Virus record (IMG/VR): IMGVR_UViG_3300004199_000001
Location: 1-52,060 of that record
Length of the DNA: 52,060 nt
Reading direction: 5' to 3' (one strand)
From: a virus
Lineage: Duplodnaviria; Caudoviricetes
The first letter of the stretch is position 1. Each line of letters starts with the position of its first letter. Under the pieces are notes generated by a model, which worked only from the letters and a program-made list of their open reading frames with translations, was not told where the DNA came from and did not search any database. Below are positions 1,773 to 12,321 of this stretch, in pieces. The position numbers and the translations under genes were made by a program.

Positions 1773-4127
1773 ATGAACAATATAAAAAGGCCAACCACGC
1801 TTGAAGAAATAAGGATGGCGCTTGGGAAATCAAAGCGGACTGTCGAAGTATCCGCAAAGAAAGGCGGGTGGGAATACACCGAAGAAAACGGATCAGGGAA
1901 AAACAAAAAACGCTTATACGCCTTGAAAAATTTACCCAAAGACATCCAGCAAGCCATTTTTTCACACCGATTTAACTTAGGAGTTAATCATGGACAACAC
2001 CAAACCAGCGGAGAAAGTTCGCCAGCTTCAACTGCCAGCAATAGCCGAGGAAATGAGCCAGGGGCAGATCAACGAAATCATGGATCTGGAAACGAAATTA
2101 ACGATGTTCCAGGTCGAATTCATGATGGAAGCGGTAACAAAACCGGGATTAAGACTGCCACTATGGGGGCATCAAAAGCGGGAAGACTGGGCAAAAATAC
2201 AGGCAGCGCCACTTTATTATGCCCCGGCACTGCTGGAGGAGGAAGAACTGAGGCAGTTCCTGCAACTCAAGGTGCTGGAGCGAATGAAACTGATCAGACA
2301 CCAGCAACTGACCCTAAAAAACGAGTGCTGGCAGCTGACCGCAAGGGGGCGACTAGTAGTGATCTGGCACATGCGAGTGGCGGCGGACTATCAAGCACAG
2401 ATGAATCACGGATCGACGACCGACAGCGCCTAAAAGACGGCTCCCGGCAAGTCATTTTACAGTTTGTCGAAAGCTATCCCGGATCTGTCGAGGCGGCTTG
2501 CGAGTATTTAACACACGGCTATGCCGCAGGCAGCTTAGCGCCCGACCTGGCGTATGCGATTCAGCACTGCAATGACAAGCTGAACGCAAACAGGATCGGC
2601 AAGGTCTCTGCCAGCACCGTTGGCAAATGGCGGCAACTGAAGAACAAAACCGGCCACTGTTTACCGTCCAAGACCCGGATCAAGATCGACTGGCAAAGCG
2701 TGTGGTGGTTCCATCTGTTCTTGTCCTGCTACCGCAAGCCGCAAAAGCCGAAGCTGACCGAGGCCCATGCGGAGTTCAAAAAGAACTGGCTCGAACAGAG
2801 TCTGTCGCTGGACGAGTTTCCCAGCTATCACACGGTTAACCGACTGCTTTCGACAGTGCCCCCTATCATCAGGGAGACGGGCCGTTGTACGGGTTCGGAA
2901 ATGGCGGCGCTCAAGTCATTTGTGCGCAGGGACTGGTCTGGATCGAGCAACGAGGTATGGGTCGGCGATGGGCATACTTTTAAAGCCAAGGTACGCCACC
3001 CAGAGACAGGACGGGCGTTTGCGCCGGAGGTCACGGTGATTATCGACGCGGCTAGCCGCTTCATTGTGGGCTGGGCGTTCAGCCTGTCGGAAAACCAGAT
3101 CGCCGTATCAGAGGCGCTAGGCCAAGCCATGCTGAAACATGGCAAACCGTTAATTTATTACTCGGATAACGGTTCCGGCCAGACCGCAAAAACCATCGAC
3201 TGCCCAGCGGGCGGAATGTTGGCAAGGCTTGGGGTTCGGCACCAAACCGGCATACCCGGAAATCCGCAAGGGCGCGGCTTGATCGAGGGGCTTTGGGACA
3301 TTACCGCGATTGCGGTAGCCAAGACGTTCCCGACCTTTCAAGGCACGGGCATGGATGACGGCGCATTGCGCAAGGTTACAGCGGCGATTAACAGCGCCAA
3401 GCGCAAGGGAGAAGTGCCGACTTTTGTACCGTCATGGCAAGAATTTATGGCCGCCTGCGAGGAGCGTTTTGATACTTACAACAACGAGCATAAGCATAGC
3501 AGCTTGGGTGGGAAGACCCCCGCCGAGGTGTATTTCGCCAACTTTGACGAGAGTTGGTCCTGCCCGCTAACTGAGGACGAGACACTTAACCTGTACCGAC
3601 CTTTTGTAGAACGGATGCCAAGGCGAGGCGAAGTAACCTGGATCAATAACATCTACTTCAATCAAAAACTGGTTGAACTGCCCGAGAAGACCAAGGTGCT
3701 CGTGGCTTATGACATGCACCATGCTAATCACGTCTGGATCAGCGACCTACAAGGTCGGTTTATTTGCGTGGCGGTATGGGATGGCAACAAGGTCGATGGC
3801 TTTCAAAAATCGTTTGTTGAGAAGCTGAAAGACCAACGCATCGACGGCATTGAAAAGCTCGCGCTTGAAAAGGCCGAGGCGGCCCGCGCTGAACGCTACG
3901 GCATCATTGACGGTGAAGTGCTGGAACGCATCCCAGCCATACCGCAGGAAGTCATCGAGCCATTGGTACGAGTTCAACCGATACCAAGGGAAGCAGATGA
4001 ACCGTTAAAAAGCCCGGTTATAGAGGGTGGATTTAACAGGCAGGAACCAGAAGAAAAGACCATGACCCGGCAGGAAACCGCCGAAATGATCCAGAAGCTT
4101 CTGGAAGCAAAGAATAAGGGCGGCTAG
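1773..4127 (+). CDS. Mu-type DDE transposase (MuA-like)
   Basis: N-terminal Mu HTH, DDE motifs WVGDGH / YSDNGSG / GRGLIEGLW, Mu-transposase C domain; followed by an ATPase gene. Confidence 0.95.
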   Translation: MNNIKRPTTLEEIRMALGKSKRTVEVSAKKGGWEYTEENGSGKNKKRLYALKNLPKDIQQAIFSHRFNLGVNHGQHQTSGESSPASTASNSRGNEPGADQRNHGSGNEINDVPGRIHDGSGNKTGIKTATMGASKAGRLGKNTGSATLLCPGTAGGGRTEAVPATQGAGANETDQTPATDPKKRVLAADRKGATSSDLAHASGGGLSSTDESRIDDRQRLKDGSRQVILQFVESYPGSVEAACEYLTHGYAAGSLAPDLAYAIQHCNDKLNANRIGKVSASTVGKWRQLKNKTGHCLPSKTRIKIDWQSVWWFHLFLSCYRKPQKPKLTEAHAEFKKNWLEQSLSLDEFPSYHTVNRLLSTVPPIIRETGRCTGSEMAALKSFVRRDWSGSSNEVWVGDGHTFKAKVRHPETGRAFAPEVTVIIDAASRFIVGWAFSLSENQIAVSEALGQAMLKHGKPLIYYSDNGSGQTAKTIDCPAGGMLARLGVRHQTGIPGNPQGRGLIEGLWDITAIAVAKTFPTFQGTGMDDGALRKVTAAINSAKRKGEVPTFVPSWQEFMAACEERFDTYNNEHKHSSLGGKTPAEVYFANFDESWSCPLTEDETLNLYRPFVERMPRRGEVTWINNIYFNQKLVELPEKTKVLVAYDMHHANHVWISDLQGRFICVAVWDGNKVDGFQKSFVEKLKDQRIDGIEKLALEKAEAARAERYGIIDGEVLERIPAIPQEVIEPLVRVQPIPREADEPLKSPVIEGGFNRQEPEEKTMTRQETAEMIQKLLEAKNKGG
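1990..2433 (+). CDS. Overprinted (+1 frame) 147-aa protein inside the transposase, possibly winged-helix
   Basis: AGGAG RBS at 1979..1983; folded-protein composition with LERMKLI...WQLTARGR; overlaps the low-complexity linker of the transposase. Confidence 0.7.
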   Translation: MDNTKPAEKVRQLQLPAIAEEMSQGQINEIMDLETKLTMFQVEFMMEAVTKPGLRLPLWGHQKREDWAKIQAAPLYYAPALLEEEELRQFLQLKVLERMKLIRHQQLTLKNECWQLTARGRLVVIWHMRVAADYQAQMNHGSTTDSA

Positions 4128-7376: not shown

Positions 7377-7545
7377 GTCAAAACTGGACGAGCTGAAAGA
7401 ACGGCTGGAATGTCAATTCCTGAAAGTCAGGCCGATACGCGGTTATTTTGTCTCGCATCATGGCTATAGCAATGAGGGCGTGTACTGCCGCGATCTGGAT
7501 GCCGTCGAGCGTCACCTTAAAAAAGTGGAGGAGCAAAATGGATAA
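7369..7545 (+). CDS. Small hypothetical protein (58 aa, MAKSKLDELK...; not in ORF track)
   Basis: Read directly; fills the gap and overlaps the neighbours at both ends. Confidence 0.6.
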   Translation: MAKSKLDELKERLECQFLKVRPIRGYFVSHHGYSNEGVYCRDLDAVERHLKKVEEQNG

Positions 7546-7954
7546 GAACAAAAAAAGCGAACTGGCGAAGATCCACATCGCTAAAAAACAGCTGGGCATG
7601 GATGACGATACCTATCGCGCCATGCTGAAACAGGTAGCCGGTGTTAACAGCGCCAGCGAATTAACGGAAAAAACACGCGCAAAAGTGCTGGATCACCTGA
7701 AAAAAGTCGGCTTCAAACCCGTCAAGCACAAAGGCCGTCCGCATAACATCGACACCAAGGCAGGTAACGCCAAGCAGCTGAGCAAGATCGAGGCGCTGCT
7801 GGCCGATGCAGGCAGGCCTTGGGCGTATGCGGCCAGCATGGCAAAGCGCATGTACAAGAAAGACGCGCTGGAGTTTTGTGATGGTACAGAGCTTGCGGGG
7901 ATTATTGCCGCCTTGGTCAAAGATGCGAAAAAGCTCGAGGAGGCAAGCCAATGA
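7538..7954 (+). CDS. gemA: GemA/gp16 (DUF1018) family protein
   Basis: LAKIHIAKKQLGMDDDTYRAML...GF signature. Confidence 0.88.
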   Translation: MDKNKKSELAKIHIAKKQLGMDDDTYRAMLKQVAGVNSASELTEKTRAKVLDHLKKVGFKPVKHKGRPHNIDTKAGNAKQLSKIEALLADAGRPWAYAASMAKRMYKKDALEFCDGTELAGIIAALVKDAKKLEEASQ

Positions 7955-8253
7955 TGCCAATAGAGACAAAGCCAATGCTTGCCAAGGTGATAAACATCTC
8001 AGATGTTAGAAGCAAGAGACTCGTGAAACCCTGCGCTCATAGGGCAATCTTAGTCGATGTGCAATTAAGCACCGTTGAGTGCGGCGACTGCGGCGAGAAA
8101 CTGAACCCGGTGATGATGCTCAGTCGTATGGGGCGCGAGGAATCCCGCTGGGCGGAAGAGTACAAACGACTCCAGGGCATTAAAAAGACGCTGGAAACAC
8201 GAACCCGCTGCAAGTGCCAGCATTGCGGACAGATGACGAGGATCAAGGTATGA
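7951..8253 (+). CDS. Zinc-ribbon hypothetical phage protein
   Basis: CxH, CxDC and CQHC motifs; coupled start. Confidence 0.7.
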   Translation: MMPIETKPMLAKVINISDVRSKRLVKPCAHRAILVDVQLSTVECGDCGEKLNPVMMLSRMGREESRWAEEYKRLQGIKKTLETRTRCKCQHCGQMTRIKV

Positions 8254-8384: not shown

Positions 8385-8942
8385 ATGAAACAAACCAAAC
8401 AACAATGGGAAGAAGTAAAGAACAGCCTATCAGGCGTGTATGGTAGCGTCTATTTACGCTGCGACGGCTACCTGATCACTGCCGTTATCCAGCGCGATAA
8501 AATGAAGCTGGTGATCACCGTTTATGTCAATGGCTGGATCAAAGGAAAAGACATGTGGCACGGCAAGGAGAGCGACCTGGACAAGATAGGCGACATTGCG
8601 AGGAAGTTTTTTTGCCTGAAAAGCAAGGGGCCGTCTGCCAAGACCATCGCTAGGGAAAAAAAGGTGTTCGGGGCCAGGTTTTGTAAAGAGCGCCGATGGC
8701 ACGAAAGATTTTACTATGCCCATCCGTATTTCAGCACACCGGGAGCCTTTATCGCCCACATCAAAAAGCATAACGAGTCCATCGAAGTACTGGATTATGA
8801 AACCTATAAAGAGGCGCTGAACGCCTTGCCGATAGATAACGTCACCGAAAAGCCCGAGGCATCCGAAAACGATGCCACGGGCGCTTTAAAGTCGCTTGTT
8901 GGCACGACATTAAAGCGAGGCGATGAGGAAGATGACGAATGA
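8385..8942 (+). CDS. Hypothetical early protein
   Basis: 185-aa ORF in the operon. Confidence 0.7.
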   Translation: MKQTKQQWEEVKNSLSGVYGSVYLRCDGYLITAVIQRDKMKLVITVYVNGWIKGKDMWHGKESDLDKIGDIARKFFCLKSKGPSAKTIAREKKVFGARFCKERRWHERFYYAHPYFSTPGAFIAHIKKHNESIEVLDYETYKEALNALPIDNVTEKPEASENDATGALKSLVGTTLKRGDEEDDE

Positions 8943-9505
8943 GCAAAAAGCGCTTTGTCCAAGCCGTTATCGCCCGCAGCCTGCCGACCCATGACAAGCG
9001 GCAGGCGGCTCTGGATTATGCAGAGGGCTTATGGGACTGGCTGACTACCAAGGGCTACGGCAATGCCGAACCCAGCCAGCCACGCCAGGGCATGGATTAT
9101 TACCGCGCCCTGGATTCACGGCAGTCTTATTACTTCGATAAATTCTGGGGCACGTACAACCACAAGCAGGGCCGCAATGAAGCGGCGATGCGCTGGGGCC
9201 AGCTGGTCGATCCGACAGACGAGTTTTATCAGTTCATCATCGACGCGGCCAGAAAGGAAGCCTCAAAGCAGATCCAGCCCGGCCAGGTACGCAAGATGGC
9301 CCAGGGCTGGCTGCATGAGCAACGCTATAACGACTACCAGCCCACGACAGCCAACAAAGACGCCCAAAAAGGCCAGCTGATGCAGAAACTGACCAGCCAG
9401 CTGAATGGCGTTAAGACCCTGTACGAGGCAGGAGGTGATGAGGCCCTGCTGCCGGAGATCCAAAAACTTGAAAACCAACTTAGAGAGGCAAGGAAAACAG
9501 CATGA
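8939..9505 (+). CDS. Hypothetical protein with a phage replication-initiator-like C-terminal motif
   Basis: FDKFWGTYNHKQGRNEA..RW..L...QGWLHEQRYND. Confidence 0.6.
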   Translation: MSKKRFVQAVIARSLPTHDKRQAALDYAEGLWDWLTTKGYGNAEPSQPRQGMDYYRALDSRQSYYFDKFWGTYNHKQGRNEAAMRWGQLVDPTDEFYQFIIDAARKEASKQIQPGQVRKMAQGWLHEQRYNDYQPTTANKDAQKGQLMQKLTSQLNGVKTLYEAGGDEALLPEIQKLENQLREARKTA

Positions 9506-9723
9506 AAGAACATGATATGGGAGGGAAAACAATTGCGATGACATTAGACAAAAAACATAAGGCCGAAAAACGTAAGCTTGAGTCTCTGCTTAAAGGCCTT
9601 GAATCTAGGGCCACAAACTGGGCAGCATTAAATGACGTGGTAGGCGCTTATATTGGGTTTGGTTATGGCGACCCGACCGAGCACTTTAAGGCCGCGCTTA
9701 AGCACTACATTGAAGATGTATAA
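9502..9723 (+). CDS. Hypothetical protein; stop codon lies in an attC core
   Basis: ATGA-coupled; ends ...GTA TAA C. Confidence 0.65.
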   Translation: MKEHDMGGKTIAMTLDKKHKAEKRKLESLLKGLESRATNWAALNDVVGAYIGFGYGDPTEHFKAALKHYIEDV

Positions 9724-9805
9724 CGCCGTGGCAAAGGGCGCGCACGATGGATTATGAACAACGCGCTGCTGCTAAAGCGCGTCCCATTTGACCAGAGAGT
9801 TATAC
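9718..9805 (-). repeat. Integron attC-like site 1 (88 bp)
   Basis: Minus strand: GTATAAC-5-GGTCAAAT GGGACGCGC...GCGCGCCCTTTGCC-5-GTTATAC, with unpaired extra bases on the R''-L'' arm. Confidence 0.75.
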
Positions 9806-9808
9806 ATT

Positions 9809-9967
9809 ATGCCAAAAAATATTGAAGACGCCTTGAATGAGGCAAACGAATTTCGATTAAAAATTGAATCCTCACAGCCGAACGATATTTATTCGGCAAT
9901 TCGCGAGCATGAACAAAAGCACAAGACCGCTTACGAACTGCTAAATAAGTGGGCTCGTGGTGTATAA
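9809..9967 (+). CDS. Cassette-borne 52-aa protein (MPKNIEDALN...; not in ORF track)
   Basis: Sits exactly between two attC cores; stop TAA lies in the core GTATAAT. Confidence 0.65.
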   Translation: MPKNIEDALNEANEFRLKIESSQPNDIYSAIREHEQKHKTAYELLNKWARGV

Positions 9968-10081
9968 TGCCACGGTAAGGCAACCGCCGACAGAGGAAGC
10001 CAAAAAGAATGAATAACTTTGAAAAACACCAACCGCGAACCGCGCTTAGGGCGGCGGTTCGCCTTGACCGACTCGTTATGC
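9962..10081 (-). repeat. Integron attC-like site 2 (120 bp)
   Basis: Minus strand: GCATAAC-5-GGTCAAGG C(G)AACCGCCG...CGGCGGTTG CCTTACC-5-ATTATAC; 8-bp L'' versus 7-bp L', two extrahelical bases. Confidence 0.82.
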
Positions 10082-10099
10082 TTATTACAGAGGCTTTAA

Positions 10100-10315
10100 A
10101 TGAAACAGCTATTTAATAACCCAGTCCTTGGGCAACGCGTAATTTTAAAAAATAGCCTTGGCGAGGAAAGCCAACAAAGAATTGTTGAAGTTACCACAAA
10201 GGCTATTCGAATTTCGTCATGCAATTTGTACAAATTTAATAGAGACGGCAGTCTGAATAAATCGGATAAGCGAGACAGGGTCATCGAACCGTCGATTAGA
10301 CCTGTTGGTGCATAA
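10100..10315 (+). CDS. Cassette-borne 71-aa protein
   Basis: GAGG RBS; flanked by GTTATGC (10075) and GCATAAC (10310). Confidence 0.7.
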   Translation: MKQLFNNPVLGQRVILKNSLGEESQQRIVEVTTKAIRISSCNLYKFNRDGSLNKSDKRDRVIEPSIRPVGA

Positions 10316-10347
10316 CGTAAATAGACACCAAAAACGATTCGCATACT

Positions 10348-10391
10348 CAACCAAACCCGGCTTAGTCCGGGTTTTTTTATGCCTACTCAAT
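10348..10391 (+). terminator. Early operon terminator
   Basis: AAACCCGG-CTTAGT-CCGGGTTTTTTT. Confidence 0.8.
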
Positions 10392-10491
10392 GGTTATCAC
10401 CTTAGACCAAGACAGCGGCAACATAAAAATAAATCGAGCGATAATGCAGTCTTACGGCTAAGATTACCCGTTTTTAACTTAGGAGAAGGCA

Positions 10492-11133
10492 GTGGACTGG
10501 GTATATGGCTCTATAGCGTTATTCGTGGTGTTCTATGCGGTTTGGGTTGTTTTTATGCGCCACATTGGACAATCAAAAATCATTCAATGGGGAGGCGGAT
10601 TTATCGCCTCGATGATCGTATGGTGCGGAATTGCCGCCATCGCCTTGCAACCGTCTAAAGAAAACGTGCCGCAGGAACAGCAAGTGCAGGCCGAATCAAT
10701 TCCGCAGGCGGAAACGGTAAATCAGTCTCCGCTTTTGGATCATAACTATGCCATGAAAGACGGCAATCAATATGGCTATGCTCGGGCCATCAGTGCGGAA
10801 GAAGCCAACAACGGACAAGTGGCCGAGCAGTTGATGATGTTTAAGTTCTCGGGTTCCCGCGACGGAACCTTTCAAGTCTTCACAGAAACGGATGGCCCCA
10901 TATCAACACTTGAATGCGAAAAGCCCTGCGAATTCATGAAAGCGATGGTTTTTTATCAGGGCAAGCATATCAAAACCGAGCGCTTCCGCGCCGCAGAGGG
11001 ATCAATAGGCGCATTGGCTTTATCGGACGCCATTAACGGCAAGCTTGAACAGTACGTTAGCGAAAAAAAAGGCAAATCAGTTAATGTCTGGTTTGACGAA
11101 AAAAAGGGCGTTATTGCCATGCCTGTTCATTAA
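10492..11133 (+). CDS. Moron: membrane-anchored protein (two N-terminal TM helices plus soluble domain)
   Basis: AGGAG RBS with GTG start; isolated between two near-identical terminators. Confidence 0.75.
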   Translation: MDWVYGSIALFVVFYAVWVVFMRHIGQSKIIQWGGGFIASMIVWCGIAAIALQPSKENVPQEQQVQAESIPQAETVNQSPLLDHNYAMKDGNQYGYARAISAEEANNGQVAEQLMMFKFSGSRDGTFQVFTETDGPISTLECEKPCEFMKAMVFYQGKHIKTERFRAAEGSIGALALSDAINGKLEQYVSEKKGKSVNVWFDEKKGVIAMPVH

Positions 11134-11147
11134 CTAAGCATAGATCC

Positions 11148-11186
11148 CAACCAAACCCGCTCCGGCGGGTTTTTTTATGCACTCAA
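11148..11186 (+). terminator. Terminator, duplicate of 10348..10391
   Basis: CAACCAAACCCGC-TCCG-GCGGGTTTTTTTATGC..ACTCAAT. Confidence 0.8.
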
Positions 11187-11226
11187 TAAACTTTGAGTTT
11201 ACAATGAGCCGCATTATAAACTTTCA

Positions 11227-11637
11227 ATGCACCCTGCCATGAATACTCATCTATTCGATTTGCCGCCCGCATTAATCCCCGATCGATTACAGCAGATATC
11301 CAGCCATTGCGGCCAACAGACCGCGCTGGTGCTGCTGCTGAATTTTCCCGGCGTGCATGTGCGCATCCCCAAAAATCCGAACCACGGCCACAAACTCGCT
11401 GAATTGCTGGGCATGATAGCGTTCGGCAAGCTGTGCTCGATCTACGGCGACGAGATCGTTTCAATACCCAGGGCGGCTAAGGCAATCCGCGCTATCCGTA
11501 ACCAGCAGATCCTCCATGATTTTGCCGAGGGACAGACGCAGGCGGCCATCGCGCTGAAATACGGCATGACCCAGCGCCAGGTCAACAAAATCTGCAATGC
11601 GGTCGCGTTTGACCGCCAGCTAGACATCTTCAACTAA
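11227..11637 (+). CDS. mor: Mor/C-family late transcription activator
   Basis: G..V.IP...IRNQQILHDF..G.TQAAIALKYGMTQRQVNKI; precedes the lysis cassette. Confidence 0.85.
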   Translation: MHPAMNTHLFDLPPALIPDRLQQISSHCGQQTALVLLLNFPGVHVRIPKNPNHGHKLAELLGMIAFGKLCSIYGDEIVSIPRAAKAIRAIRNQQILHDFAEGQTQAAIALKYGMTQRQVNKICNAVAFDRQLDIFN

Positions 11638-11661
11638 CTACCACCTTCTTTGTTAAGAGGG

Positions 11662-11715
11662 CGTTACGAACCCCCTCTTATCCGCTGCATCGGGGCCAGT
11701 GCTTACACTAGCCCC
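11662..11715 (+). promoter_or_regulatory. Activator-dependent late promoter 1 (CGTTACGAACC ... TACACT)
   Basis: Same 11-mer and same 42-nt offset to the -10 box as at 20908. Confidence 0.6.
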
Positions 11716-12321
11716 ATGAATAAAAACACCCAACCGACCATCGGCAAAGCAGGCTTAGACCTGATCAAAACCAGCGAAAAGCTGAAATTGCAGGCGTACC
11801 TATGCCCAGCCAACCGCCTGACCATCGGCTGGGGCCATGTGCTACTGCCAAAATTCGACGCCGGGCTGTTCAAGAACATATCGCCCGAGGCGTTAACCCG
11901 CATCATCGCCGAATGCGGGAAGCGCAAGACCCTCACCAATGAAGCCAGGTCGCTGCTGTATATCAACCAAAAACAGGCCGAAACACTACTCACCCAAGAT
12001 GCCAGCCAGACTGCGCTGTTCATCAATTCCGTGACTCCGGTCGAATTTACGCAGAACCAGTTCGATGCGCTGTGCAGCCTGGTATTCAACATCGGCCAGG
12101 CCAATTACGCCGAATCAACCCTTAGACAAAAACTGAAAGCCGGGGATTTTTCCGGTGCCGCCGCCGAGTTTGACCGCTGGATATACGGCACCGTGGACGG
12201 CAAGAAACAGAAACTAAACGGATTGATTACCCGGCGCGCCGCCGAGCGCGACTTATTCGCGACTGCCATGGATGGCGGAAGTGCCGGTACCGCTGGGAGC
12301 GGTACAGGTGAGTCGCCATGA
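11716..12321 (+). CDS. Endolysin, GH24 lysozyme
   Basis: GLDLIKTSE..KLQAYLCPANRLTIGWGH, QNQFDALCSLVFNIG, GLITRRAAE. Confidence 0.92.
   Translation: MNKNTQPTIGKAGLDLIKTSEKLKLQAYLCPANRLTIGWGHVLLPKFDAGLFKNISPEALTRIIAECGKRKTLTNEARSLLYINQKQAETLLTQDASQTALFINSVTPVEFTQNQFDALCSLVFNIGQANYAESTLRQKLKAGDFSGAAAEFDRWIYGTVDGKKQKLNGLITRRAAERDLFATAMDGGSAGTAGSGTGESP
12259..12308 (+). repeat. Double-hairpin REP-like repeat, copy 2 (in frame at the endolysin C-terminus)
   Basis: GCGACTGCCATGGATGGCGGAAGTG-CCG-GTACCGCT-GGG-AGCGGTAC. Confidence 0.75.

Follow-up and report, generated by a model that had tools for sequence, protein, structure and literature searches.

Bacteria are known to store swappable genes in integrons and, since recently, also anti-phage defences, and phages carry morons, accessory genes inserted among conserved phage genes. 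The attC sites of integrons end in inverted cores of the form RYYYAAC ... GTTRRRY with conserved AAC/GTT triplets, and according to Nivina et al. (2016) their folded bottom strand comprises an R box, an unpaired central spacer, an L box and a 6-bp stem that separates the extrahelical bases of positions 16 and 23/24 (with an optional one at 20). Clusters of attC sites on phages without the integron integrase IntI have already been published, and temperate phages are described in the same source as carriers of pieces of their hosts' sedentary chromosomal integrons with attC sites of the host type (Qi, Rajabal, Ghaly, Tetu, Gillings, 2023, PMC9892861). Such clusters are termed CALINs where at least two attC sites lie close together and intI is not nearby.

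We analysed a stretch of 52,060 nt (the window) that corresponds to the Caudoviricetes record IMGVR_UViG_3300004199_000001 and whose carrier we read as a Mu-like (transposable) phage. With a probability of roughly 0.85, the segment between about 9538 and 10316, which closes the Mu-like early operon, is a CALIN from the attC family of methanotroph chromosomal integrons. Like the CALINs of Qi et al. (2023, PMC9892861), it is an attC cluster on a phage with no integron integrase; unlike them, it is carried by a Mu-like transposable phage of methanotrophs and lies within the early operon, and its units recur elsewhere, those of the genes g1 and g3 (listed below) in integrons of the host clade and that of g2 in a phage-like contig. 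Every gene in it is inverted relative to attC, a relation on which the searched text of PMC9892861 is silent. The locus also resembles the attG/GWT insertions, SALINs and small CALINs of Loot et al. (bioRxiv 10.1101/2022.09.11.507474), with which it shares a precise G/TT junction outside an integron, two attC sites with no integrase and, presumably, expression from a neighbouring promoter, but unlike the attG insertions described there it has no attC-target junction at its far end. The locus is also related to the sedentary chromosomal integrons of Methylococcales, such as that of Methylobacter marinus A45 (G005), which have the same attC family (up to 109 bits with R1, a covariance model described below), agree with it in core words and in bulge positions, and contain homologues of g1 and g3 as cassettes.

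The cassette array in the phage early operon

The features of the locus are as follows.

8939..9505, plus strand: p4, a conserved Mu-like early gene, after which no further conserved phage gene precedes the array
9538..9723, plus strand: g1 (cassette C, a remnant), 61 aa, with a GGGAGGG ribosome-binding site before ATG 9538
9718..9805, top strand minus: attC1 (element 1), of cassette B (9967 down to 9724); R1 27.0-27.3 bits on plus, 10.9 on minus
9809..9967, plus strand: g2 (cassette B), 52 aa, inverted relative to attC1
9962..10081, top strand minus: attC2 (element 2), of cassette A (10315 down to 9968); R1 102.3 bits on plus, 20.2 on minus
10100..10315, plus strand: g3 (cassette A), 71 aa, inverted relative to attC2; 14 homologues
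10310..10334, minus strand: outer junction, core GCATAAC (on minus, G/TTATGC) and the next 18 nt, read from the sequence
10353..10374, plus strand: intrinsic terminator from a terminator scan, ending the array-bearing transcript

Both elements are bounded by paired core words, GTATAAC (9718-9724) with GTTATAC (9799-9805) in the 88-nt attC1 and GTATAAT (9962-9968) with GTTATGC (10075-10081) in the 120-nt attC2, all given on the plus strand, where the outermost core GCATAAC follows at 10310-10316. Words of the type RYATAAY/RTTATRY occur 51 times in the 52,060 bases, six of them inside the 625-base array. Three consecutive plus-strand genes have their stop codons within attC-type cores and, read on the minus strand, the cassettes start with TTATGC and TTATAC, complementary to the first core of their own element. 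An initial annotation of this DNA, made from the letters alone, had described stop codons in cores and cassette starts complementary to their own core; both are present, and every sequence feature that it named lies where it had been placed. Its cassette array is likewise real, but holds three cassette genes instead of the two proposed, the gene ending at 9723 being a cassette gene as well.

The two attC sites are 157 nt apart and the record contains no IntI, as in a CALIN. The combination of intI, attI and cassette promoter adjoining the array, which characterizes a complete integron, is absent: unlike the Methylococcales integrons, the phage has no intI, no demonstrable attI and no cassette promoter. 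Scores for an integron integrase in the 52-kb window reached at most 26.2, 18.6 and 17.2 bits, where the curated cut-off is 265 bits, which bears out the earlier remark that no integrase of the window looks like IntI (26.2 and 17.2 bits for the best tyrosine recombinases).

Homologues of p4 (41-60% identity) were found at 6 viral and 18 genome loci. In five relatives (L005, L008, L025, L026 and L031) p4 is directly followed by mor, and the array locus is an insertion. Like phage morons, the array consists of small genes between conserved neighbours that relatives lack and that a terminator follows; unlike morons, these genes are bounded by structured attC sites common to integrons and not by a promoter and terminator of their own. 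The orientation of the array would let its genes be read with the early transcript, by read-through, up to the terminator, and in being so read g1, g2 and g3 would act as small accessory early genes. Contigs from RNA libraries give a weak hint in this direction: they span 8900-10367 unbroken and stop in the terminator, and in two runs of one study they break off at 10367 and 10369 and start again at 10482-10484, with 10370-10481 free of RNA-contig cover and DNA contigs continuing.

Structure and affiliation of the attC sites

The covariance model R1 was purpose-built from five elements of other loci and contains no window sequence. Against the whole window it gave only two matches, both full length and both on the plus strand, namely 102.3 bits at 9962-10081, a score that in part reflects plain homology of attC2 with the elements used for building R1, and 27.0 bits at 9718-9805. 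With filters off, the same two places reached 20.2 and 10.9 bits on the minus strand, and no other place within 8800-11800 scored above 9.9 bits. A covariance-model search of both strands had been proposed as a check of the two sites, and with R1, a model built in the present analysis, both elements are matched.

In the R1 consensus the R box spans 7 bp, the spacer is unpaired, a 6-bp stem separates a bulged G (position 16) from a bulged T (position 23), and 4 pairs covary. Counted from the 3' end, attC1 has bulges at positions 16, 20 and 24 (G16, or A15 in an alternative register, A20 and T24), and attC2 has a G at 16 and a T at 23, with one A-C mismatch beside T23. The bottom-strand bulge anatomy of Nivina et al. 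(2016) is present in both window sites, and both (88 and 120 nt) are inside the length range of 57-141 bp for attC sites. The folding z-score of attC1 is -3.6, with an equal fold in 0 of 200 shuffles. Among the cores, attC1 shows GTATAAC/GTTATAC and attC2 GTATAAT/GTTATGC (GTATAAC in a sister phage); GTATAAC and GTTATAC are one position off RYYYAAC/GTTRRRY, and identical cores are found in sites beside intI (L015b). T9968 turns the conserved AAC cleavage triplet of attC2 into AAT. This substitution (G-to-A on the minus strand, C-to-T on plus) had been noticed before and could be verified in the conserved AAC; it occurs neither in the sister phage, which has a C at 9968 and both AAC triplets intact, nor in four sequencing runs.

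The same family forms arrays adjoining an integron integrase gene in L015, G004, G005, G006 and G134, and in each of these, the integrons showing both, the R1 matches lie upstream of intI on the same strand. Their integrases score 463 bits in L015, 499 in G004, 496 in G005 and 384 in G006; those of G134, G315, G076 and G267 lie between 461 and 496 bits, and all exceed the cut-off of 265 bits (duplicates were merged: L012 and L018 are one sequence from two collections, L015 also stands for L016, and L020 also for L019). Copies of attC1 are found in the arrays of G315 (85% identity) and G134 (81%), and attC2 is 84-87% identical at the DNA level to attC sites found in G076 and G006. Host-clade genomes of the Methylobacter type thus possess both integrases and this attC family, in agreement with the suggestion to look for intI in the host. 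As the family sits on the integrase strand in Methylobacter-type arrays, the plus strand of the window is the recombining bottom strand.

RNA structures are common within operons, and the intergenic hairpins found here might in principle be mere attC look-alikes, such as RNA-processing sites, attenuators or REP/MITE-like repeats, and not recombination sites. An Rfam scan of 8500-11500 with E up to 10 returned only terminator-like chance matches and none on either element (9700-10300 was empty), a result in favour of such look-alikes. They would, however, have to account for a family that in at least five integrons forms arrays alongside the integrase gene, always on the integrase strand, for bulge positions that fit the published attC anatomy, and for units of gene and element that move jointly between contexts, and we regard this explanation as barely credible. 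Sequence comparison confirms the two window elements as integron-type attC sites.

Cassette genes and their orientation

The true start of g1 is probably ATG 9538, not position 9502 of the ORF list. A homologue in G134 has 86% DNA identity to it from ATG 9538 through the GTATAAC core; in that genome an attC lies before the gene, attI and then intI come after it, and it occupies the first cassette position in a chromosomal integron. In the window, g1 is missing its own attC. A homologue of g2 (55-56% identity) is located on contig 21 of G267 and, since an attC1-like site precedes it, the unit of attC1 and g2 is conserved; this unit recurs in the phage-like contig L058, and the genome of the g2-bearing phage-like contig carries IntI, on other contigs. 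The unit of attC and g3 recurs in L015, a metagenomic integron with IntI, and in L021; in L014, R1 matched only a downstream attC and nothing upstream of its g3. On the basis of these recurring units, all three array genes g1, g2 and g3 are classified as cassette genes.

The coding strand of the three genes is securely assigned to plus by the state of their reading frames: antisense to g1 all three frames contain stops, the antisense frames of the g2 homologue are closed, and among the g3 homologues the sense frame is open in 7/7 and the co-phased antisense frame closed in 4/7. The predicted structure of g3 is a small all-beta barrel (pLDDT 80) with no match in the PDB below E 0.1. Pfam and PHROGs gave no matches for g1-g3, and in a protein atlas the matches of g3 were all under 0.9 and g1 had none. 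Since g3 was absent from the 301 genomes of the order that were searched and g2 was found in just 1 of 401 genomes, the donor integron was not found among them.

The inverted orientation proposed earlier holds for g1, g2 and g3, all of which lie on the bottom-strand side of attC, unlike canonical cassettes with the gene on the top strand upstream of attC. The homologues in L015 (g3) and G134 (g1) are likewise inverted, as is that of g2 in L058, and as the g1 and g3 units keep their layout inside real integrons, the inversion is a property of the cassettes themselves. In four phage-like elements, 13 of 13 attC hits were on the gene strand. Most cassettes of the Methylococcales chromosomal arrays are canonical, in contrast to the uniformly inverted ones of the phage: by longest ORF, a measure that is crude for cassettes under 100 codons, 21/29 intervals and 6/8 first cassettes were canonical (in the integron L062, 4/9 intervals by the same measure). 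An accumulation of phage-derived cassettes at the first position was also considered but did not hold up, as the first cassette was canonical in 6/8, inverted in 1 and ambiguous in 1. We did not find uniform gene inversion in phage attC clusters in the literature searched.

Ends, acquisition and mobility of the array

We consider the array to be a probable piece of a cassette array with the attC family of Methylobacter-type chromosomal integrons, which holds three cassette genes and two complete attC sites, with attC upstream of its own gene on the phage sense strand. Any movement would depend on host IntI acting in trans at attC1 and attC2. The window copy is partly decayed, its outermost attC sites being missing or shortened and the AAC triplet of attC2 having lost its C.

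A sister phage shows 20 differences from the window in 2801 bases, none of them structural, and has the same array; in total, two phage copies and four sequencing runs agree in showing this array. The variable cassette content expected earlier among relatives was therefore not seen, and related prophage loci had attC in 0 of 18 cases. No excision joints appeared in the four runs, the data being contigs, which drop rare variants. A search of viral contigs for an empty site, with the g1 protein and a 36-nt stretch past the junction, retrieved only the sister phage and no cassette-free relative, and a distant search of INPHARED with 9000-11200 returned nothing but 32 nt shared with two Klebsiella phages and lying outside the array. 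From these contigs we saw no sign of current mobility. The sister prophage occurs in sequencing runs labelled as single organisms.

On its left side the array does not terminate in an attC: similarity with the g1 cassette begins at the ATG, and 9506-9537 is unrelated. As g1 lacks an attC, a single IntI insertion does not explain the whole structure without later erosion. Also absent is the attC expected after g3. At the right end, the first 5 nt beyond the outer core are identical to those of attC L015b, and the 4-5 bases past the crossover match both the L015b attC spacer and the attI of the clade. Such ends would be expected if a fragment of a chromosomal integron (attI or a place beside it and two and a half cassettes) had been captured once by illegitimate recombination and now consisted of inert, domesticated morons; the mutated AAC of attC2 in the window and the invariance of the array across all copies seen are compatible with this, and attC sites are easily lost via replication slippage (Loot et al., bioRxiv 10.1101/2022.09.11.507474). 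A random pick should, however, have brought mostly canonical cassettes, given the 21/29 intervals and 6/8 first positions of the integrons (by the crude measure above), and the 13/13 attC hits on the gene strand, the intact AAC triplets of the sister phage and an attI resemblance that is not significant also speak against it. We hold this capture to be a serious possibility, if short of even odds.

The initial annotation had instead proposed an attI-like docking site of the phage and a borrowed host IntI, often SOS-induced, for swapping small accessory early genes. In this model cassettes would be added serially at 10316/10315, with g3 as the newest and g1 as the oldest and most decayed. The G/TT junction is exact, cassette starts fit their own cores, GTT agrees with the GWT consensus of secondary sites (Loot et al., bioRxiv 10.1101/2022.09.11.507474), and decay seems to rise away from the junction, from attC2 (102 bits) through attC1 (27 bits) to the lost attC of g1. 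The low score of attC1, however, marks a shorter subfamily with copies of 85% identity in G315, and not decay. Only by opening two gaps can the 14 letters beyond the junction be matched to the attI of G076 (14/14), and 292 (best case) to 2074 of 5000 shuffles equalled or beat this alignment, which ranks fifth of 153 in the window, four other core-adjacent stretches scoring higher. A decayed attI after the junction was dropped after these shuffle and in-window controls, and the proposed docking site is left without statistical support. A crude search for LexA boxes (the pattern CTG-N10-CAG, not a LexA model) found none upstream of intI in 4/4 integrons, contrary to SOS induction, and no copy varies at the site. 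The claim that removal of the cassettes would restore an ancestral phage junction fails as well, because the upstream gene g1 is itself a cassette gene missing its attC and not native phage DNA. Serial docking is in our view distinctly unlikely.

Returning to the CALIN reading, a further and rather unlikely extension of it is that methanotroph phages and integrative elements keep a cassette pool of their own, with the gene always on the bottom-strand side, which would be silent in host integrons by facing away from the integron promoter, be expressed in the phage operon and be exchanged by host IntI. If this is true, phage transcription would leave the recombining strand single-stranded at induction, and g1, found at the first and most recently filled position of a chromosomal integron, would represent one phage-to-integron transfer. 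Phage early genes possibly harmful to the host could in this way travel via host integrons, with the host's own IntI exchanging them between phages.

As judged from recurring units, a transposable phage has three small early genes that are integron cassettes, two of which, g1 and g3, are also present in chromosomal integrons of the host clade, the g1 homologue adjoining attI at the newest position. Direct sequence evidence is thereby given for a common gene pool of phages and host integrons. The uniform inversion, as opposed to the mostly canonical chromosomal arrays, suggests that a rule may govern which cassettes phages are able to harbour, and it offers the idea that host-harmful genes might be stored silently in integrons.

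Anatomy of the array in the early operon

The gene order around the array on this viral contig of 52,060 bases is that of a Mu-like transposable phage, with three small genes (g1, g2 and g3) located between the last of several conserved early genes, p4, and the gene of the late activator Mor:

7538-7954: GemA, early region
8939-9505: p4, a conserved early gene of 188 aa
ending at 9723, plus strand: g1
9718-9805, bottom strand on plus: attC1, imperfect hairpin of 88 nt, cores GTATAAC/GTTATAC
9809-9967, plus strand: g2
9962-10081, bottom strand on plus: attC2, imperfect hairpin of 120 nt, cores GTATAAT/GTTATGC
10100-10315, plus strand: g3
10310-10316: third core, GCATAAC
10353-10374: predicted terminator following g3
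10492-11133: gene of 213 aa, between p4 and mor
11227-11637: Mor, late activator
11650-12321: lysozyme

Relatives of p4 were found at six viral loci and at 18 genome loci, the latter mostly in Methylovulum, Methylobacter, Methylomonas and other Methylococcales. Since mor directly follows p4 in five relatives (L005, L008, L025, L026, L031), the 1.7 kb between them in the window represents an accessory insertion, comprising g1-g3, the terminator, the 213-aa gene and a second, similar terminator. The two terminators (10349-10390 and 11148-11186) have the stem base, the T-run and a following TATGC..ACTCAAT in common, and the 213-aa gene resembles an accessory insertion in its own right, with a copy of a duplicated terminator module on either side.

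All sequence features listed in the initial annotation were found. The TAA stop codons of g1, g2 and g3 fall within core words, and these words are about tenfold enriched at the array (6 of 51 occurrences in the window lie within 625 bases). The fold of attC1 was equaled by none of 200 shuffled sequences (z -3.6). A covariance model (R1) was built from five 120-nt elements that flank homologues of g3, all from outside the window. In their consensus fold a short unpaired spacer separates the 7-bp terminal box from a 4-bp helix, which is followed in turn by a bulged G, a 6-bp helix, a bulged T and a stem of 7 bp; the alignment contains four covarying pairs. The bulges, at positions 16 and 23 (numbered from the 3' end), agree in position and base with the attC anatomy described by Nivina et al. 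(2016). Searched against the whole window, R1 yielded only two matches, attC2 (102.3 bits) and attC1 (27.0 bits), both full length and on the plus strand. Without filters, the minus strand scored 20.2 and 10.9 bits at these elements, respectively, and no other match between 8800 and 11800 exceeded 9.9 bits. In the R1 alignment attC1 has bulges at positions 16, 20 and 24, corresponding to the three-bulge variant that Nivina et al. also describe. The R1 matches, the published bulge positions and the occurrence of the same family beside integron integrases together identify both elements as attC sites, as had been proposed.

Counterparts in chromosomal integrons

Fourteen homologues of the g3 protein were found. 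In the metagenome loci L015 (identical to L016) and L021 the gene is flanked on both sides by 120-nt elements resembling attC2, while L014 has a clear copy on the downstream side only, no R1 match being found upstream. The integron-integrase model (cut-off 265 bits) gives 463 bits for a 342-aa protein encoded in L015, and three R1 matches lie upstream of this intI and on its strand. Integrases above the cut-off are present in three of five Methylovulum/Methylobacter genomes with related Mu-like prophages and in all four further genomes of the family found through DNA similarity, so that intI genes do exist in the host clade. R1 matches occurred in all five genomes searched; in Methylobacter marinus A45 they form a row that extends over 25 kb upstream of intI, on the intI strand, an arrangement shared by G004, G006 and G134. 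Integron cassettes are read in the direction away from intI, and the strand matched by R1 is therefore the bottom strand, in agreement with the bulge positions and with gene orientation in the arrays, where 21 of 29 intervals come out as canonical if each is crudely assigned by its longest ORF. The plus-strand matches in the window thus confirm the inverted orientation of the attC sites with respect to the phage genes.

A second class of integron-integrase matches (G006:C182:6107-7042, G267:C92:661-1596, G076:C18:67878-68813), which also exceed the cut-off with 372-384 bits, is located in exceptionally long ORFs of 469-493 aa; some of the same genomes have the ordinary form of 327-348 aa as well. 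Short R1 matches (62-64 nt) lie far from the integron in M. marinus A45 (G005 C1 1847812-1848255, 3873017-3873079, 4564052-4564115), two of them adjoining a weak IntI-like match (1846238-1846753). These short matches could represent cassettes on their own or a further array in decay.

Each phage gene has a cassette counterpart. The g3 homologue of L015 (84% identity) is located between two integron attC sites on the integrase strand, next to cassette genes of 219, 188 and 110 aa in canonical orientation. Relative to the sense direction of g3, the upstream attC accompanies the gene in the window, L015 and L021 and the downstream one is not conserved, as cassette boundaries predict for an inverted gene. 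On contig 21 of G267, a Methylovulum-type genome, a g2 homologue (55%) follows an attC1-like site (31 bits) and has its stop codon within the core of the next attC. In G134 a g1 homologue (86% DNA identity), likewise preceded by an attC1-like site, is followed by GTATAAC, then directly by the attI sequence common to L015 and G076 and by intI (464 bits), and is hence the first cassette of this integron, facing intI. The sense frame is open in all seven g3 homologues examined and the co-phased antisense frame is closed in four of them; antisense stops are also present in g1 and the g2 homologue. The coding strand of g1-g3 is not in doubt, and all three are cassette genes with unusual polarity. 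The two cassettes of the initial annotation are thus real, but their number rises to three with g1.

A bottom-strand ORF in the attI-proximal cassette points at intI in both L015 (4177-4401) and L068 of G134 (7986-8171), and could feed transcription into intI; the 74-aa ORF of L015 spans the attI junction and is an ambiguous call, given a 76-aa ORF on the opposite strand.

Array ends and present state

The window resembles the G134 cassette only from ATG 9538 onward; GGGAGGG precedes this codon, and the 32 bases that separate it from p4 are unrelated to the cassette. The ORF-list start of g1, ATG 9502, overlaps the p4 stop; the first 12 codons counted from it may be untranslated or a phage-derived extension. 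As the similarity starts only at ATG 9538, g1 lacks an attC of its own, and the junction of g1 stop and terminator leader, which had been taken as the restored ancestral sequence, is not an empty phage site.

Nor did the proposed attI-like docking site find support. At the outer junction, the five bases beyond the core are identical to those of the attC after g3 in L015, and an alignment of the following 14 letters with the attI of G076 is possible using two gaps. Between 292 and 2074 of 5000 shuffled sequences scored equally well, higher scores came from four other stretches of the window adjacent to cores, and this resemblance to attI was accordingly dropped as evidence. The junction may derive from a phage GTT secondary site (the consensus of Loot et al., bioRxiv 10.1101/2022.09.11.507474, being GWT), a cut-down attC or a decayed attI. 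A LexA-box pattern was absent upstream of intI in all four integrons checked, leaving the suggested SOS link without support here.

A sister phage carries the same array (99.3% identity across 2801 bases, 20 differences), with C instead of T at 9968 and thus an intact AAC triplet. Its allele was present in three RNA libraries and one further public run, and none of their contigs contains a joint across any cassette; an R1 match (E up to 1) was found in none of 18 related prophage loci. The variable cassette content expected at this locus was not seen, and these copies and contigs therefore gave no sign of current mobility. Two RNA runs from a single study have contigs that are unbroken from 8900 to 10367 or 10369 and restart at 10482-10484, immediately 5' of the start codon of the 213-aa gene; a DNA contig is continuous across 10367-10484. 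Together with the predicted terminator at 10353-10374, this RNA coverage weakly suggests co-transcription of the cassettes with the early operon and an end of the transcript at this point.

Inverted cassettes in phage-like elements

The array is an authentic cluster of integron cassettes, in part decayed, carried by a Mu-like phage. Of the model proposed initially the anatomy holds; its docking site and SOS link found no support. This kind of element is already known from phage CALINs: Qi et al. (2023; PMC9892861) reported three complete integrons, one In0 and 17 CALINs among 10,705 phage genomes, and temperate Vibrio phages with pieces of the host chromosomal integron. New here are the host group, the phage type, the position within the early operon, the presence of all three cassette units in other places too (g1 and g3 in integrons of the host clade) and the uniform inversion of the genes. 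Gene orientation relative to attC is not mentioned in the searchable text of that paper, and our literature search found no paper on uniform inversion of phage-borne cassettes.

Phage operons without any attC (L019/L020, one sequence, and L032) likewise contain g3 and g1 homologues, for which reason these genes look phage-related in origin. In L019/L020 the g3 homologue (3001-3210, 68%) shares an early operon with genes for a repressor, an HNH-like protein and a primase of 600 aa, the context of a P4-like satellite or a phage, and attC is absent on both sides. In L018 (3217-3260) and L017 (834-880) only the first attC arm (core and ~25 nt) remains after the g3 homologue, and the next gene's ribosome-binding site adjoins it directly; such half-eroded sites seem to be frequent in phage-like contexts.

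R1-type attC sites lie between phage-type genes in three further elements. L018 (identical to L012), which is an integrative element, carries an AlpA-like gene, a non-IntI tyrosine recombinase, a g3 homologue, a transglycosylase/endolysin-like gene, a DHH phosphoesterase (PHROG, 357 bits) and a pyrophosphatase; L021 combines a regulator of KilA-N type with a g3-like gene and a pair of HTH genes; and L058 has a DNA methyltransferase (243 bits), phrog_210 and the g2 homologue. All 13 attC matches in the window and these elements (2 in the window and 4, 3 and 4 in L018, L021 and L058, respectively) are on the gene strand, whereas in chromosomal integrons canonical orientation prevails. If fragments of chromosomal arrays were captured at random, most of the cassettes gained should be canonical; the inversion bias of phage-borne cassettes therefore looks systematic, and it is this possibility that deserves further attention.
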